A DNA stretch of 64,000 nt from a phage. The stretch lies in the sequence record PZ019086.1. One strand, 5' to 3'. A program made the translations under genes and the position numbers. Shown here piece by piece: positions 40,676 through 46,211 of this stretch. Within the stretch, counting starts at the first letter, position 1. The number at the start of each line of letters is the position of its first letter. Under the pieces are notes generated by a model that searched no databases, was not told the origin of the DNA, and was given only the letters and a program-made list of their open reading frames with translations.

Positions 40676-41065
40676 TTAACGATTAAAATCAGCAGCAATT
40701 GTTTCAGCAACAATTTGAGCAGCAACAATTAGACGTTCATCTGCATTACCGCAATAATCATCTTCAAGGCGCTCACCACATGAAGTCATAATAAATTTGG
40801 CACCAGCATTTAGAGATTCTGCTGTATGTTTGCGCATCAGTTCAATCCATTTATTACTTACTTCACGATCGATAGCTTCATAATACGCATGACGAGCAGG
40901 TGCAGATTTAATTTTGCTCTGAATAACTTCCATCGCATTATCAGAAAGAGACAAAACCCATGCTCGACGAATTTTATTTTGGTTTTGTGGATTTGATTCA
41001 GAACGCACGTGTTTTGGCTGAATATCTTTTACATCAACAGTATAATTCACCGTAATTTTAGTCAT
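40676..41065 (-). CDS. rpbA: RNA polymerase binding protein RpbA
   Basis: 129 aa as T4 RpbA, adjacent to gene 45. Confidence 0.6.
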
Positions 41066-41074
41066 AATACACCT

Positions 41075-41266
41075 TTAGTCATAATAATCAGTAACAGTCC
41101 AAGCTTCATTTCTGTTGGACATTATTTTCGTATATTCTGATTTAAATGCATTCTTAAGCATAGATTCAGTAACTATATGCTCTTCATTAGAAAAATTATT
41201 TCTCAGAATATATCGTTTTATTTCAGGAATAGTTAATAGATGCTGTCCAGTTGAATATTCTGCCAC
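41075..41266 (-). CDS. Hypothetical protein (63 aa, 45.2 position)
   Basis: ORF. Confidence 0.45.
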   Translation of the reverse strand: MAEYSTGQHLLTIPEIKRYILRNNFSNEEHIVTESMLKNAFKSEYTKIMSNRNEAWTVTDYYD

Positions 41267-41276
41267 AGTTCCTCCG

Positions 41277-41284
41277 TATAAATA
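41277..41284 (+). promoter_or_regulatory. Late promoter box TATAAATA (plus strand) upstream of the HNH endonuclease gene
   Basis: Exact TATAAATA 33 nt upstream of ATG at 41318. Confidence 0.55.
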
Positions 41285-41317
41285 TGTTTATCACTCGCTG
41301 TATCAAAAGGATATGTT

Positions 41318-42034
41318 ATGAATTATAAACTAATTTATGAAAAGTTAATCTCTAATGCTAAATCTCGAAAACTTGATTGCTATACTGAATCTCATCACAT
41401 TATACCACGCTGTTTAAATGGTAGCGATGATGCTTCAAACTTAGTAGATTTAACACCAGAAGAGCACTATGTAGCTCATCAACTTTTAGTAAAAATTTAT
41501 CCTTCTGAACCAAAATTAGTCTATGCTGCTAACATGATGACAGTTTCTACGAAATACGCTAAACGTAATAATAAAACTTTCGGCTGGATTCGTCGTAAAC
41601 TCTGGGAAATAGAAAAGAATAAAGAGTTCTCCCAAGAGACACGAAAGAAAATGTCCGATGCAGTAGCTAATAAAGCAAGACTAACTTGTCCACATTGCGG
41701 TAAGTCTGGATTAAGCGGGAATATGAATCGATGGCATTTTGATAACTGCCCAAATCACCCCAATCCTAAAGTTAGACCGCCAATGTCTAAAGAACACAGA
41801 AATAATATCTCAAACGGGCTTAAAGCAATCGTTCTTGAAGAAACAACCTGCGAATTCTGCGGAATGATAGGCAAGAAATGCGTTATCGCAGCGCATAGAA
41901 ATTTCTGCAAGAAAAATCCAAATGGACGCAAGAAAACTGAAAAGACTGGTACTTGCGTCCATTGTGGTAAAGTTACCACTTTCGGAAATTTATCAAGATG
42001 GCATAATGATAATTGTAAATATAAACCTAGCTAA
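41318..42034 (+). mobile_element. Free-standing HNH homing endonuclease gene with three C-terminal Cys/His zinc-finger-like repeats
   Basis: 238 aa; HNH motif ESHHIIPRCLNGSDDASNLVDLTPEEHYVAH; repeats CPHCGK...RWHFDNC, CEFCG...HRNFC, CVHCGK...RWHNDNC; opposite strand to all neighbours; 3' end overlaps gene 46 stop by 8 bp. Confidence 0.75.
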
Positions 42035-43715
42035 TCTTAGCTAAACTAAATCTACCAACTTTTTCCATTTGAATGTGCTGACCATATTCCTGTGGGTCAT
42101 GGTCTTTATGCGAAATTATGAAGAAGTTGGTATCCTTCAAACCATCTAAAATTTTAGCCACATTTTTAATACCTTCAGCATCAAATGCACCGTCATATAC
42201 TTCATCAAGAAATAAACAACTTATTTTAACACCTGAAACTTTTTCAGCAATATCACGCCAAGTAAATAAAAGAGCAATATCAATTCGCGCTTTTTCACCT
42301 TGACTAAATGAAGCATAACTAAAATCTTCACGACCACGGGATTTAATTGTCTCATTAAATTCTTCATCTAATGTAAACACATAATCCGCTTCCATTATTT
42401 TAAGATAATGGTTAATCTGCTTATTAAATAATGGAATGTACTTTTTAATAATAGCACCTTTAATACCAGAATCTTTGAGCATATCAGTCAAAATTCCTCT
42501 ATGGTATTTTTCCATTACTAAATTAGTTTTTGTCTTAACAATTTTATCAAGTTCTTCTTGAAGCAGTGCTATTTCATCAGCATGATCAATAAACTCAGAT
42601 GATGCTTTTTCTATAGCCGCTTTAACCTTTTTAGCTTTATCTACCGTCGTGATTAGAGATTGCTTTTTATTGCGAATATCATTCGCCAACGTCTGCTGGG
42701 TTTTAATATTATCTCGGTATTCATCAACAAGAACTTTTAAATTATCACGATGTGTTGAAAGCTGTTCAAATGAATGCGTGCATTCAGAAACTTTATCTTT
42801 AATTTTAGAAACAACTTTATCACCGGAACTTAATTGTGACAAACAGGTTGGACATAATCCACCTTCGTGATACATATTAATGACTTTATTATACGAGTCA
42901 ATTTTTGATTTAATTAAAAATGCTTCTTGACCGATTTTATCAAATGCATCAGTCGGGTCTTCATCCAAAACAATATTAACTAATCTTTCATTAGCTTCTT
43001 CTATTTCCGATTTTAACGTTCTAGCTTCTTTTGCCAAATCATCATACATATTCTGCAGACGAGTAAGGTTATCACCAGTTAATTTTTTCTGGCGTTCAAC
43101 GTTATCATTATATATTTTAATTTGTTGGATAATACTATCTTTTTTAACATCAAGCACTTGGTTTTGTGAATTTAATTCACGTATTAGTGCTTTATTAAGC
43201 TTATCCATTTCAGCTAATGTTCCTACCTCAAGCAGGTCTTCCACAAGCTTTCTTCGCGCAGGGGTCGACAAACCCATGAAAGGGGTATACCCTGCTGTAC
43301 CAAGGACAACAATCTGCTTGAAACTGGCATATGACATTCCGATAAGCTGTTCAAATTCTGCTTGGAAATCTTTACTGCTGGCAGATTCATTAAGACGTGT
43401 ACCGTTAACGGTGATTTCGAAAACGTTTGGTTTTTGTCCTCTTTTGATATAGTACTTTTTCTCATCATATTCCATCCACAGTTCAACTAAAAGTTCTTTC
43501 TTATTTGTGCTGTTTATTAATTGGCCTTTCTTTACATCACGGAATGGCTTGCCAAAAAGCCCAAATGTGATGGCTTCTAACATAGTAGACTTACCACCAC
43601 CATTTCGCCCAGTAATAAGAGTTTTTTGAACCTTATCTAATTGAATGTCAACTCCATTTTGACCAACTGACATTATATTTTTATATTTTACTCTATTAAG
43701 TTTAAATGATTTCAT
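42027..43715 (-). CDS. 46: Recombination exonuclease subunit gp46 (SbcC/Rad50-like)
   Basis: 562 aa (T4 560); Walker A GRNGGGKST, long coiled coil, C-terminal ABC signature region. Confidence 0.9.
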   Translation of the reverse strand: MKSFKLNRVKYKNIMSVGQNGVDIQLDKVQKTLITGRNGGGKSTMLEAITFGLFGKPFRDVKKGQLINSTNKKELLVELWMEYDEKKYYIKRGQKPNVFEITVNGTRLNESASSKDFQAEFEQLIGMSYASFKQIVVLGTAGYTPFMGLSTPARRKLVEDLLEVGTLAEMDKLNKALIRELNSQNQVLDVKKDSIIQQIKIYNDNVERQKKLTGDNLTRLQNMYDDLAKEARTLKSEIEEANERLVNIVLDEDPTDAFDKIGQEAFLIKSKIDSYNKVINMYHEGGLCPTCLSQLSSGDKVVSKIKDKVSECTHSFEQLSTHRDNLKVLVDEYRDNIKTQQTLANDIRNKKQSLITTVDKAKKVKAAIEKASSEFIDHADEIALLQEELDKIVKTKTNLVMEKYHRGILTDMLKDSGIKGAIIKKYIPLFNKQINHYLKIMEADYVFTLDEEFNETIKSRGREDFSYASFSQGEKARIDIALLFTWRDIAEKVSGVKISCLFLDEVYDGAFDAEGIKNVAKILDGLKDTNFFIISHKDHDPQEYGQHIQMEKVGRFSLAKIS

Positions 43716-43730
43716 TTTGTATCCAATTGT

Positions 43731-44585
43731 TCACAATGAAGAAAATTCTTTAACTAAAGCCTGTAATGAAGCCTCTATTGGATATCCATTCTTAACTAAC
43801 ATTTTCCTAAACATCACATGTTTAGGACGATTATATGATATCCACAATTCATACAATTTATCTTTATTATCCCAATGATAGCCTTTTCGTCGAGATGCTA
43901 TATGAGCTTTTCTAATCTCCGGATTTTTCCAACTAGCGGCTACTGAATTTGATATAGCTATTTTATATTCAGGTTTTGATAAAGCAACACGAACAGCCTT
44001 TTGGTGTTTAATTTTATTTTCTTCGTTATTAAACCATTCCCTTGAAGCCATTGAAATTTTTTGTTTTGTTTTAAAATTATTTAATCTTTCTTTGTTATCT
44101 TTCCTATTTTTTGCTACTGAAAAGTATTTTAATGCTCTTTCTCTAGCAGCATTTCTATTTTGTGGATTTGAATAATATTGTTGAAGCCTTTTTGATATTG
44201 TGTCACTTACATCTTGTTTTATAAAACTATATTCAGCAGCTATTAAATCAACTTCGGCTAAAGATAAATTTTTATATGTTTTTCCTGACATCATTCTATT
44301 TAAAGCATTTAGCATTTTTCCATTTTTACCTTTTGCTAATAAGAAATGTGCTTTAAAATGATTAAAATGACTTAAATTAACTAAATTCCATGTAGATTTT
44401 AAATATTCAGGAAATATTGATTTAGGAAGCACATGGTGTGCTTCCGTTTTACCTGGAGTTTTAACAGTTGAATTCATAGAAATAAAATTAATGTAAGACT
44501 TGGCGTCTTCTTCACTCAACGCTAATTTTTCAACTAATTCCTTTATTAAAAATTCATCATTAATGTCAAGTTTAAAATTCTTCAC
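43731..44585 (-). mobile_element. Second HNH-like nuclease ORF with NUMOD-like C-terminal repeats
   Basis: 284 aa; EAHHVLPKS...NLVNLSHFNHFKAH; repeated basic helix motifs (IRKAHIASRRK, HQKAVRVALSK); inserted between 46 and 47. Confidence 0.5.
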
Positions 44586-44845
44586 AAAAGATTCCTTTTA
44601 ATGTATCTTTTAGACCATTCTATCATATCATCATAATCTAAAAAGTATTCATCAAATTCAGCCATGCAAACAACACCTTGTGCTGCTTTTGATGTGATAT
44701 AAATTATTCCAACATATCTAGAATCTTCTTCGGTGTAATCAATATTTGCTACGAATTCATCGTTAATGTCAAATGTCGAAAACTTCACAGTATGCATCCT
44801 TAATACAAGATACAGCCATATCTTGTAATGATTTAGGTGTGTCAT
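44582..44845 (-). CDS. Hypothetical protein (87 aa; start may be internal)
   Basis: ORF overlapping next ORF in another frame. Confidence 0.35.
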   Translation of the reverse strand: MTHLNHYKIWLYLVLRMHTVKFSTFDINDEFVANIDYTEEDSRYVGIIYITSKAAQGVVCMAEFDEYFLDYDDMIEWSKRYIKRNLL

Positions 44846-45032
44846 TATCTAAAATGTTGAAGTTAAAAGATACAGCCCAGTCAGTGCAGACCGTGACCTT
44901 TTTAATACAATTATCTTCAACCTCTAGCGGTTCAAACCAATATTCAATAATTTCTTTATGCCCAATATCATCTTTTACTTCGCATTCAAAATGCTGACTC
45001 ATCATAACATTTTTAAATTCATCAAAAGTCAT
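44769..45032 (-). CDS. Hypothetical protein (87 aa)
   Basis: ORF with ATGA overlap to gene 47. Confidence 0.4.
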   Translation of the reverse strand: MTFDEFKNVMMSQHFECEVKDDIGHKEIIEYWFEPLEVEDNCIKKVTVCTDWAVSFNFNILDNDTPKSLQDMAVSCIKDAYCEVFDI

Positions 45033-46048
45033 TGTGTTGCCTCTACATATAACTGATTTGCATATTGAATAAGTGCTTCGCGGTCAGAATCAGTGATGTC
45101 TGGAATTGCATTAATGTATTCTTCCATCAACGTCTGAAGAGATTGAACTTCAACTTCTTCACTATCATCTGACTCGACAGAGTTATCAATCTTTGACACA
45201 ACTCGTAATGAATGCACAACTTTTTCTAGTTCAGATTCGAACTTCGTTAGATTTTTGTCTACTTCAGTTACTATAACACGCACTGATAGATTTGTAAAAT
45301 CTTTATAGTCAATTTTTCCCTTAAATGGATATTGAATTCGACGATGCCAGGTAGTGTTGTTTGGAATAAATTCCATTCGTTCTGTTTCTGTATCAAACAT
45401 CCAGAACCCGCGAGGGTCATTCTCGTCACCTGCAGTTAATGTCCATGGTGTCCCAATATATTTGACGTTAGCAGCCTCAGAGATAGTATGGAAGTGACCA
45501 GACCACACCTCTTTATAAGTCTTAAGGAAATCAGGTTCAAGACCGTGAGATTTCATTCCTTTATAAAAATAAAATCCATTCAGTTCCCAGTGACCAACAC
45601 AAAAAGAAGCAGATGAAGTTTTGATGTGTTCAAGAATTTCACCAGTATTTTCTTCACACATCCAAGGAATTAAATCAATCAAACATCCGTCAAAATCTAC
45701 TGTAGTAGGCTTATCATATACTTTAACATTAGGATATTTAGCCAGAAGCTCAGTAGAAGCATTTGGATGCATTACATTTTTGTAGTGGAGATCGTGATTT
45801 CCTACAATAGTATGTAATGTGATTCCAGCACCATCAAGCATTTGAACTATTTCACGGGCAAACTCCATAGTTTTATGCGTGATCGCTTTTCGTACATCAA
45901 AAATATCACCGTATTGAATCCATACCGTAATTCCATTTTTCTTAGAATATTCTATCGCTTGCTTAATTCCATCAATTTGAATACCGCGAATCCACTCATC
46001 ATCAGCTTTAACACCTAAATGCCAATCACCTAAATTTAAAATTTTCAT
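45029..46048 (-). CDS. 47: Recombination nuclease subunit gp47 (Mre11/SbcD-like)
   Basis: 339 aa as T4 gp47; calcineurin-like phosphoesterase motifs (GDWHLG, GNHD). Confidence 0.9.
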   Translation of the reverse strand: MKILNLGDWHLGVKADDEWIRGIQIDGIKQAIEYSKKNGITVWIQYGDIFDVRKAITHKTMEFAREIVQMLDGAGITLHTIVGNHDLHYKNVMHPNASTELLAKYPNVKVYDKPTTVDFDGCLIDLIPWMCEENTGEILEHIKTSSASFCVGHWELNGFYFYKGMKSHGLEPDFLKTYKEVWSGHFHTISEAANVKYIGTPWTLTAGDENDPRGFWMFDTETERMEFIPNNTTWHRRIQYPFKGKIDYKDFTNLSVRVIVTEVDKNLTKFESELEKVVHSLRVVSKIDNSVESDDSEEVEVQSLQTLMEEYINAIPDITDSDREALIQYANQLYVEATQ

Positions 46049-46185
46049 ATATCAAGAACCGTCATTGAAATGCAAAATAAAATTATTGAAATAAATCCAT
46101 CTGGAGTGCTAAAAAACCCAATCCAACATGCTCTAGTGAATAGATAAAATGCGAGAAAAAGTATCACATATCCAAGAAATATCAT
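46045..46185 (-). CDS. Small membrane peptide (46 aa), not in ORF track
   Basis: Manual translation MIFLGYVILFLAFYLFTRACWIGFF...; stop overlaps gene 47 ATG. Confidence 0.3.
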   Translation of the reverse strand: MIFLGYVILFLAFYLFTRACWIGFFSTPDGFISIILFCISMTVLDI

Positions 46186-46211
46186 TATATCAAACTCCGT
46201 ATAAAGCTAAA

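Follow-up and report, generated by a model that had tools for sequence, protein, structure and literature searches.

What does a nuclease gene do when it sits directly ahead of an essential recombination gene, and why should that gene be enclosed by nuclease genes on both sides? This question is raised by 64,000 nucleotides (nt) of the phage sequence record PZ019086.1, the whole stretch being referred to below as the window. Its region 41000–46100 is 98.8% identical to Escherichia phage N2 and 95–96% identical to T4 where aligned; the source phage is T4-like (Tequatrovirus). The initial annotation, made from the sequence alone, had described between genes 46 and 47 an HNH/NUMOD-like open reading frame (ORF) of 284 amino acids (aa). 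The comparisons presented here make it very probable that this ORF, designated homing endonuclease gene 1 (HEG1), is a free-standing HNH homing endonuclease gene of the Mob family that spreads by homing at the start of gene 46, and that HEG2, located at the other end of gene 46, is a separate element. The genes concerned are the following.

43731–44585 (stop codon included), minus strand: HEG1, putative 284-aa free-standing HNH homing endonuclease gene, MobD-like (ORF, PHROG 655, T4 MobD match)
42027–43715, minus strand: gene 46, Rad50/SbcC-like recombination nuclease subunit, 562 aa (Pfam SMC_N and AAA_23; T4 comparison)
44582–44788, minus strand: 46.1 (DUF5487), lying upstream of HEG1, whose translation appears coupled to it (Pfam DUF5487 4.6e-48, T4 annotation, GTG start)
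41318–42034, plus strand: HEG2, putative 238-aa HNH homing endonuclease gene of a different Mob-like subtype, at the opposite end of gene 46 (PHROG 655, 1.2e-68)

Insertion of HEG1 at the 46.1/46 junction

The ORF exists exactly as had been claimed. It starts with GTG, and at the stop-codon frequency of the window (0.062) the chance of 284 open codons is ~1e-8. Relative to T4, HEG1 constitutes an 870-nt insert placed exactly at the 46.1/46 junction: by BLAST, the T4 homology breaks off at 44568 and picks up again at 43706. T4 itself lacks HEG1 and, as the initial annotation had correctly stated, possesses only 46.1 and 46.2 between 46 and 47. In the window, 46.2 and gene 47 (metallophosphatase) lie upstream of HEG1 and 46.1. 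The insertion bears several marks of its origin.

43698–43706 (downstream copy) and 44568–44576 (upstream copy), minus strand: 9-nt direct repeat TTTAAACTT bounding the insertion (BLAST boundaries)
44568–44585, minus strand: captured gene 46 start GTG AAG AAT TTT AAA CTT, now HEG1 codons 1–6 (identical to T4 gene 46 codons 1–6)
44550–44569, minus strand: HEG1 codons 6–12 (..TT GAC ATT AAT GAT GAA TT..), 19 nt identical to 46.1 codons 6–12 in T4, T6, and RB10
43716–43730, minus strand: 15-nt spacer ACAATTGGATACAAA brought by the element, ahead of the new ATG of gene 46 (T4 comparison)

In T4, gene 46 starts with a GTG that overlaps the stop codon of 46.1. The GTG of HEG1 overlaps the TGA of 46.1 (GTGA) in the same manner, and gene 46 restarts 15 nt past the HEG1 stop with a new ATG AAA TCA, followed by TTT AAA CTT AAT AGA... 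HEG1 shows in this way an element that takes over the translational start of a host gene while supplying a replacement. The 19-nt match of HEG1 to 46.1 was reached in none of 300 shuffles (maximum 15), and the 46.1-like leader is absent from the HEG1 homologues of other genera; the stretch is probably a recombination scar.

As regards the extent of 46.1, the program-made ORF list gives it as 87 aa from an upstream ATG (44582–44845, minus strand). The conserved form annotated in T4 and Sf22 has 68 aa and begins with the GTG at 44788. The Pfam domain DUF5487 covers residues 20–85 of the 87-aa form.

An allele of gene 46 linked to HEG1

A 300-nt probe of the T4 46.1/46 junction retrieved 518 phage records, which served as the Tequatrovirus base set. 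The junction turned out to be uninterrupted in 443 of them, T4 being among the gene-less, and the ORF is no conserved 46.x gene. HEG1 is present in ~72 of the 518 records (71 at an identity of at least 95%, one at 80–90%).

When 13 Tequatrovirus loci were aligned around gene 46, a short patch directly downstream of the HEG1 insertion stood out. Over the opening 58 nt of gene 46, the window has 14 mismatches with each of the HEG1-less phages RB10, Sf22, HY03, ime09, and fFiEco06 and 0 with the carriers, against a background of 0–5 mismatches per 100 nt outside the patch. The carriers are identical to one another in these flanks.

43650–43715, minus strand: HEG1-linked allele in the first ~22 codons of gene 46, namely the new ATG, AAA TCA, ..AAT AGA GTA AAA TAT AAA...GTT GGT CAA (alignment)

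T4 is an exception among the non-carriers, having the carrier-type allele and no HEG1. A 150-nt probe spanning the 3' end of HEG1 and the patch matched 71 records at ≥99%, i.e., 71 of the ~72 carrier records, and none of the ~370 remaining junction-matching records that do not match the linked allele carries HEG1.

The same association is seen beyond Tequatrovirus. HEG1 homologues occupy the same slot in a Moonvirus-like metagenomic contig (43% identity) and in Salmonella phage Melville, a Gelderlandvirus (44%). In both cases the gene lies directly upstream of gene 46, starts on the stop codon of the upstream gene, and gives gene 46 a new ATG. The closest relatives of these carriers lack the gene (CF1 for the Moonvirus-like contig; STML-198 and S16 for the Gelderlandvirus). 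Over 47 and 46, the Moonvirus-like contig differs from CF1 by 0 mismatches per 60 nt, except for 23/60 in the first 60 nt of 46; Melville likewise differs from its gene-less Gelderlandvirus relatives by 0 per 60 nt, except for 22/60 in the first 60 nt of 46. Both pairs have a few further mismatches in the ~200 nt adjoining the patch. The carrier alleles of the three genera share AAT ArA GTA AAA TAT ... GTT GGx CAA (protein ..VKY.NIMSVGQ), and in the gene-less alleles of these genera the common sequence is AAy CGx (G/A)Ty ArG TAy CAr ... GTr GGy GGw (..YQNIMSVGG). The latter motif does not hold for PSD2001, which represents the fourth gene-less genus aligned (Gaprivervirus).

Such a pattern is the footprint that would be expected of homing accompanied by co-conversion. 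Since the mismatches of all three genera cluster within the first ~60 nt of gene 46, we infer that the target of HEG1 lies within this stretch in gene-less phages and that the carrier allele is resistant.

Distribution and decay of HEG1

The HEG1 copies of Tequatrovirus are 98.6–99.3% identical. Intact copies are found in T6, KIT03, PP01, and CM8, and most of the ~72 records hold intact ORFs. RB51 and T2 have frameshifts at different sites, a 1-nt deletion in the former and a 2-nt deletion in the latter, each truncating the product near residue 205; a frameshift is also present in RB68, counted together with RB51, and the matches in G2133 and MLP2 are split. In Gelderlandvirus, a HEG1-type gene occurs in 5 of 16 records. 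Sporadic presence combined with independent frameshifts is the pattern expected of a selfish element.

HEG1 is in fact an intact member of an ordinary, already annotated kind of element, with a MobD-like architecture. RefSeq labels it 'homing endonuclease' in T6, PP01, CM8, and KIT03, the note in KIT03 naming mobD, and the homologue in Melville is annotated as 'MobD-like'. Table 5 of a 2010 review (PMC2993671) lists one 'other HNH' homing endonuclease gene each in T2, T6, and RB51. In our interpretation, this gene is most likely HEG1; a specific description of HEG1 in T2, T6, or RB51 was not found in the searchable literature.

A more distant homologue was observed in phage GADU22 (OQ944321; locus L018, 4001–4840; also L017 and L019). 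It has 279 aa, 35% identity, and the same architecture, and lies between nrdD and nrdG, which is the mobC site in T4. Members of the subfamily therefore occupy different classic endonuclease-gene sites. As a further observation, some Gelderlandviruses that lack the endonuclease gene, e.g., S16 (locus L023, 805–927), have an insert of ~200 nt with a 40-aa '46.1-like' ORF between 47 and 46, whereas STML-198 has no insert there. The 47/46 junction is thus variable even without an endonuclease gene.

Architecture of the HEG1 protein

Alignments and AlphaFold models divide the predicted protein into three modules.

44334–44447, minus strand: HNH nuclease core, residues 47–84, carrying H50, H51, N67, H76, and H80 (invariant columns, AlphaFold models)
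43881–44213, minus strand: ~six tandem 17-residue basic helical repeats, residues 125–235, a NUMOD3-like putative DNA-binding array (periodicity, charge, model)
43734–43880, minus strand: small C-terminal helical domain, residues 236–284 (alignments, AlphaFold model)

The HNH-like core quoted in the initial annotation, EAHHVLPKS...NLVNLSHFNHFKAH, corresponds to residues 48–80, and its recognition as such was borne out. The HH..N..H..H signature of HNH nucleases is present. An alignment of 45 family members shows no variation at H50, H51, P54, N67, H76, and H80, and the same is true of H50, H51, N67, H76, and H80 in a 32-member alignment. AlphaFold predicts a beta-hairpin (47–51, 68–72) and a helix (73–84) at the motif in models with a predicted local distance difference test score (pLDDT) of 94.5 and 92.1, which had no significant fold match. 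The whole model (pLDDT 94.5) comprises two N-terminal helices, the hairpin and helix, a long helical run, and the small C-terminal helical domain. At the sequence level, HEG1 matches phrog_655 'homing endonuclease' over its full length (8e-45) and phrog_12434 'HNH endonuclease' (4e-15). Among the T4 Mob proteins, the matches are MobD (29.6% over 243 aa, E 4e-17), MobC (7e-8), and MobB (8e-8). An exhaustive HMMER search found 970 relatives; a word-indexed homologue search had reached just 7 proteins of the family.

The repeated basic helix motifs claimed earlier also proved to be real. Residues 125–235 have a 17-residue period (z = 5.9 at offset 17 and z = 3.4 at offset 34, 1000 shuffles), contain 27 lysines and arginines vs. 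10 aspartates and glutamates (net charge ~+17), and are predicted to form a helix every ~17 residues (AlphaFold, pLDDT 94.5). Their resemblance to NUMOD holds at the level of the family: 15 of the 45 aligned homologues match NUMOD3 (best 1.9e-20), six match I-HmuI_NUMOD-like, and six match HNH (PF01844), but the HEG1 protein itself does not match NUMOD3 (PF07460) at E ≤ 1. 'NUMOD-like' is fair as a description rather than as a statement of Pfam membership. The C-terminal domain follows the pattern W..KDKLYELW..NRPK..F......GYP....L..LV.EF, which is common to T4 MobD and the homologues of Melville and locus L016. The three-module architecture is kept down to 43% identity across genera.

Searches of solved structures by sequence (phmmer, profile search) gave nothing relevant for either the HEG1 protein or the family profile. 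Foldseek comparison of the full HEG1 model with the PDB gave no match at E ≤ 0.001, and the fold searches were without a significant match. What identifies HEG1 as a putative HNH nuclease is its motif, its homology, and its predicted secondary structure; a fold match does not contribute.

HEG2 and the other end of gene 46

Gene 46 does lie, as proposed, between two putative homing endonuclease genes, HEG1 and the plus-strand HEG2. The latter replaces the 55-nt spacer that separates 45.2 from 46 in T4; it is convergent with gene 46, and the 3' ends of the two genes overlap by 8 nt. According to the comparison with T4, both ends of gene 46 are remodelled, one by each insertion. The N-terminus of HEG2 is similar to MobB (44% over 126 aa) and MobD (53% over 75 aa), and its C-terminus contains three zinc-finger-like CxxC...H..C repeats. 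A note in the RB51 annotation describes it as 'similar to mobB'. HEG2 was found at ≥95% identity in 60 phage records, RB32 included. Two further features belong to it.

41277–41284, plus strand: T4 late-promoter consensus TATAAATA, 33 nt upstream of the HEG2 ATG (pattern search)
42047–42250, minus strand: HEG2-linked divergent stretch, the last ~200 nt of gene 46 (13-locus alignment, T4 comparison)

The late-promoter consensus TATAAATA has 3 matches in the 64-kb window vs. 9.9 expected by chance. The 3' patch of gene 46 shows 19–29 mismatches per 100 nt against all HEG2-less genomes and 2–6 against HEG2 carriers. It covers the Walker B region (LILDEVFDG changed to LFLDEVYDG), and the last five codons of gene 46 are replaced. 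In ime09 and Sf22, a third allele of this 3' stretch was observed. The Gaprivervirus PSD2001 (locus L011, 739–1455) has a 61% homologue of HEG2 in the same 45.2/46 slot, and the 3' end of its gene 46 keeps the 'TLILDEV' form, unlike the window.

Are the two nuclease genes related to each other? The paralogy check proposed at the outset was negative. The HEG1 and HEG2 proteins have only the 55-aa nuclease core in common (36% identity, E 1e-5) and carry different DNA-binding modules, helical repeats in one and three zinc fingers in the other; close paralogy is rejected. Non-random co-occurrence is rejected as well. Both genes occur together in 12 records (eight phages), HEG1 alone in ~60, HEG2 alone in 48, and neither in ~398, so that 12 joint records are observed vs. 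8.3 expected (odds ratio 1.66, Fisher p = 0.16). The distributions of HEG1 and HEG2 look independent. It is concluded that two independent elements invaded gene 46 from opposite ends. The idea of a recombination hotspot, which had been offered for this arrangement, is supported: patches of 24–29% substitution directly beside each nuclease gene, vs. a background of 0–5%, mark the two ends of gene 46 as local mosaic or recombination hotspots.

Other mosaic segments were observed in the neighborhood. The 5' third of gene 47 (45750–46048) exists as two alleles: RB51, T6, Sf22, ime09, KIT03, and PP01 have 11–22 mismatches per 100 nt, and T4, T2, RB10, HY03, and fFiEco06 have 0–6. CM8 is mixed, with 2/100 at 46048 and 20/100 at 45848. 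This split is unrelated to either endonuclease gene, and several of the divergent genomes are also without an annotated 47.1. In ime09 alone, mismatches reach 18 per 100 nt in an isolated patch at 43250–43350 within gene 46, which is otherwise 97–100% identical.

Expression of HEG1

A scan of 41000–46200 for sigma-70 promoters and terminators gave counts no higher than those in shuffled sequences. The interval between the HEG1 ORF and gene 47 is free of the late-promoter consensus, of MotA-box patterns, and of sigma-70 sites in excess of chance. Given the lack of promoter-like signals and the GTGA overlap, HEG1 would most simply be expressed via read-through and translational coupling to 46.1. 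RNA structure does not exceed that of shuffles either around the HEG1 start (z = −1.2) or at the new gene 46 start (z = −0.4), so there is no sign at HEG1 of a hairpin sequestering the ribosome-binding site (RBS) like that of mobE. A MotA-box-like match (TGCTT, 14–18 nt, TAnnnT) was noticed inside HEG1 at 43960–43986 (minus strand), ~245 nt upstream of the new ATG of gene 46. It may represent an internal promoter for gene 46, a weak candidate given that the window contains 36 such matches vs. 24 expected.

Proposed mechanism and alternative explanations

Homing by HEG1 may be envisaged as follows. A carrier phage and a phage without HEG1 would co-infect one cell, and the HEG1 enzyme would nick or cut the DNA of the competitor at some point in the opening ~60 nt of gene 46, for which the sensitive allele is ..AAC CGA GTy ArG TAy CAr AAy ATw ATG TCA GTr GGy GGw. 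The break would be repaired by the phage's own recombination machinery with the carrier genome as the template, and HEG1 would be copied into the recipient along with a short stretch of adjoining sequence. In this tract, carrier genomes have the variant allele (..AAT AGA GTA AAA TAT ... GTT GGx CAA), which always travels with HEG1 and would protect them. Action of this kind has a precedent in MobE, which is reported to nick the 5' region of the neighboring gene in phages without mobE (PMC2790892). The bracket around gene 46 is attributed to two independent invasions of one conserved essential gene. A prediction that follows from homing at the gene 46 start is that T4 carries a resistant allele.

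Several points weigh against this interpretation. The Pfam profile search that had been suggested for HNH and NUMOD domains returned no nuclease or NUMOD match for the HEG1 protein at E ≤ 1, and NCBIfam gave none at E ≤ 0.1. No biochemical or genetic study of the HEG1 protein was found in the searchable literature. T4 and ~74 other records hold the linked allele without HEG1, so the allele is not strictly diagnostic. The counts of alleles and genes ignore phylogeny and are inflated by GenBank/RefSeq duplicates. The order of events can be read either way, as insertion into the linked allele or as later gene loss.

The same element may have another target, namely the uninterrupted T4-type 46.1/46 junction, destroyed by the insertion in the manner of intron-encoded enzymes, with empty T4-type sites being the natural substrate and the RB10-type allele being resistant or irrelevant. 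The flanks of the insertion are indeed near-T4 (0/72 mismatches upstream and 2/58 downstream), an insertion into, or a deletion from, a T4-type site between the 9-nt repeats explains the sequence exactly, and about half of the records with the T4-type allele carry HEG1 (71/145). We nevertheless hold it to be unlikely, while deserving attention, since in the two other genera the nearest empty sites (CF1, STML-198) are of the other allele type and the 22–23 substitutions begin immediately behind the insertion, as expected if the cut lies in the patch and the variant came with the gene. SegF and SegG act on the neighboring gene rather than on their own insertion point. The same kind of action on a neighboring gene is on record for characterized free-standing T-even endonucleases such as MobE (PMC2790892). 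A quite different and still less probable possibility is that the window copy of HEG1 is an inactive passenger, fixed in its lineage and drifting toward decay. This copy is full length with all invariant motif residues intact, most of the ~72 records are intact too, the three modules are conserved across genera, and genome pairs that are otherwise identical differ by co-conversion-like tracts, a sign of recent transfer. All this speaks against a passenger, although the frameshifts in T2 and RB51/RB68 and the split matches in G2133 and MLP2 show that loss is tolerated, and the 98.6–99.3% identity of the copies leaves purifying selection not measurable within the genus.

The bracketed arrangement might also suggest that HEG1 and HEG2 form a cooperative pair, with cuts at the two ends of gene 46 in a competitor leading to replacement of the entire gene as a cassette. 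In favor of this, a divergent patch of gene 46 accompanies each of the two nuclease genes at the end where it sits, and eight phages have both. Their co-occurrence is, however, at the chance level, most carriers hold one gene only, the interior of gene 46 has no pair-linked allele, and HEG1 appears coupled to the early/middle 47–46 operon, while HEG2 has a late promoter on the opposite strand; cooperation is accordingly very unlikely. It is harder still to believe that HEG1 is a domesticated HNH protein with a phage function (packaging, degradation of host DNA, or regulation of gene 46) and not a mobile one. HEG1 does hold the translational start of gene 46, is co-oriented with the 47–46 operon, and would be expressed with the recombination genes. 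Such a role is contradicted by its absence from 443 of 518 close relatives, T4 included, by the frameshifts in the viable T2 and RB51, by the fact that its nearest relatives are Mob-type homing endonucleases, and by the paralogue of the same architecture that other phages have between nrdD and nrdG, the slot of mobC.

Homing of HEG1 at the start of gene 46 invites a more far-reaching scenario, which we put forward tentatively and consider rather doubtful. The first ~20 codons of gene 46 might be a long-running battleground, where one endonuclease lineage has tracked the site across at least three genera with the same resistant allele; gene-less holders of this allele, such as T4, would be 'vaccinated' survivors that could stem from conversion tracts ending before HEG1 or from deletion between the 9-nt repeats. 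In the eight double carriers, the drive would act on gene 46 as a single unit, from its two ends. If so, T4 would be immune to the T6 enzyme, and most wild T-even phages would be sensitive.

Free-standing homing endonuclease genes are well known in T-even phages, which limits the wider significance of these findings. Their added value is a clean, experimentally uncharacterized case in which the footprints narrow the likely target to ~60 nt. In general, invasion by HEG1 and HEG2 may explain the mosaic at both ends of the essential gene 46 among phages that are otherwise near-identical.

Comparison with known systems

Collaborative homing, which had been suggested for the bracket around gene 46, involves a free-standing endonuclease and an endonuclease-less intron that splits its site. 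The term turned out to be inapplicable here because gene 46 has no intron: it is a single uninterrupted 562-aa ORF collinear with T4 gp46.

I-HmuI of Bacillus phage SPO1 (structure 1U3E) has a general plan like that of HEG1, an HNH core followed by NUMOD-type helical modules. It is an intron-encoded nicking enzyme, whereas HEG1 is free-standing. The Pfam domain 'I-HmuI_NUMOD-like' is matched by 6 of the 45 HEG1 family members, and there is no significant sequence or fold match of HEG1 to solved structures. The RB32ORF054w-type endonuclease, i.e., HEG2, resembles HEG1 in belonging to PHROG 655, being free-standing, abutting gene 46, and having a linked divergent patch. It differs in its zinc-finger repeats, its own putative late promoter, its opposite orientation, and its independent distribution.

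T4 MobD (NP_049710, putative) is the best T4 match of HEG1 and has the same order of modules: HNH core, helical repeats, and C-terminal domain. Both proteins share 17-residue repeats of the PE.K.K.S type and the C-terminal W..YD.LY.LW..NRPK..F...GYP domain. Their identity is just ~30%, and HEG1 has an additional two-helix N-terminal extension of ~45 residues, the first 12 codons of which are borrowed from 46 and 46.1. The sites are different too, mobD being located between nrdC.11 and mobD.1. MobD itself is not known to have a characterized target.

T4 MobE, which has been characterized, belongs to the same family as HEG1 by PHROG 655/Mob. An internal terminator and a hairpin that sequesters the RBS regulate mobE, whereas the HEG1 start has no significant RNA structure (z = −1.2). 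The mobE gene is reported to be promoterless and co-transcribed with the upstream gene by read-through (PMC2790892), and HEG1, judged by its sequence, would be expressed likewise. In phages without mobE, the reported site of MobE action is the 5' region of an essential gene next to it, and flanking markers are converted (PMC2790892). An equivalent action is proposed for HEG1, with gene 46 as the candidate target in place of nrdB, the target of MobE.

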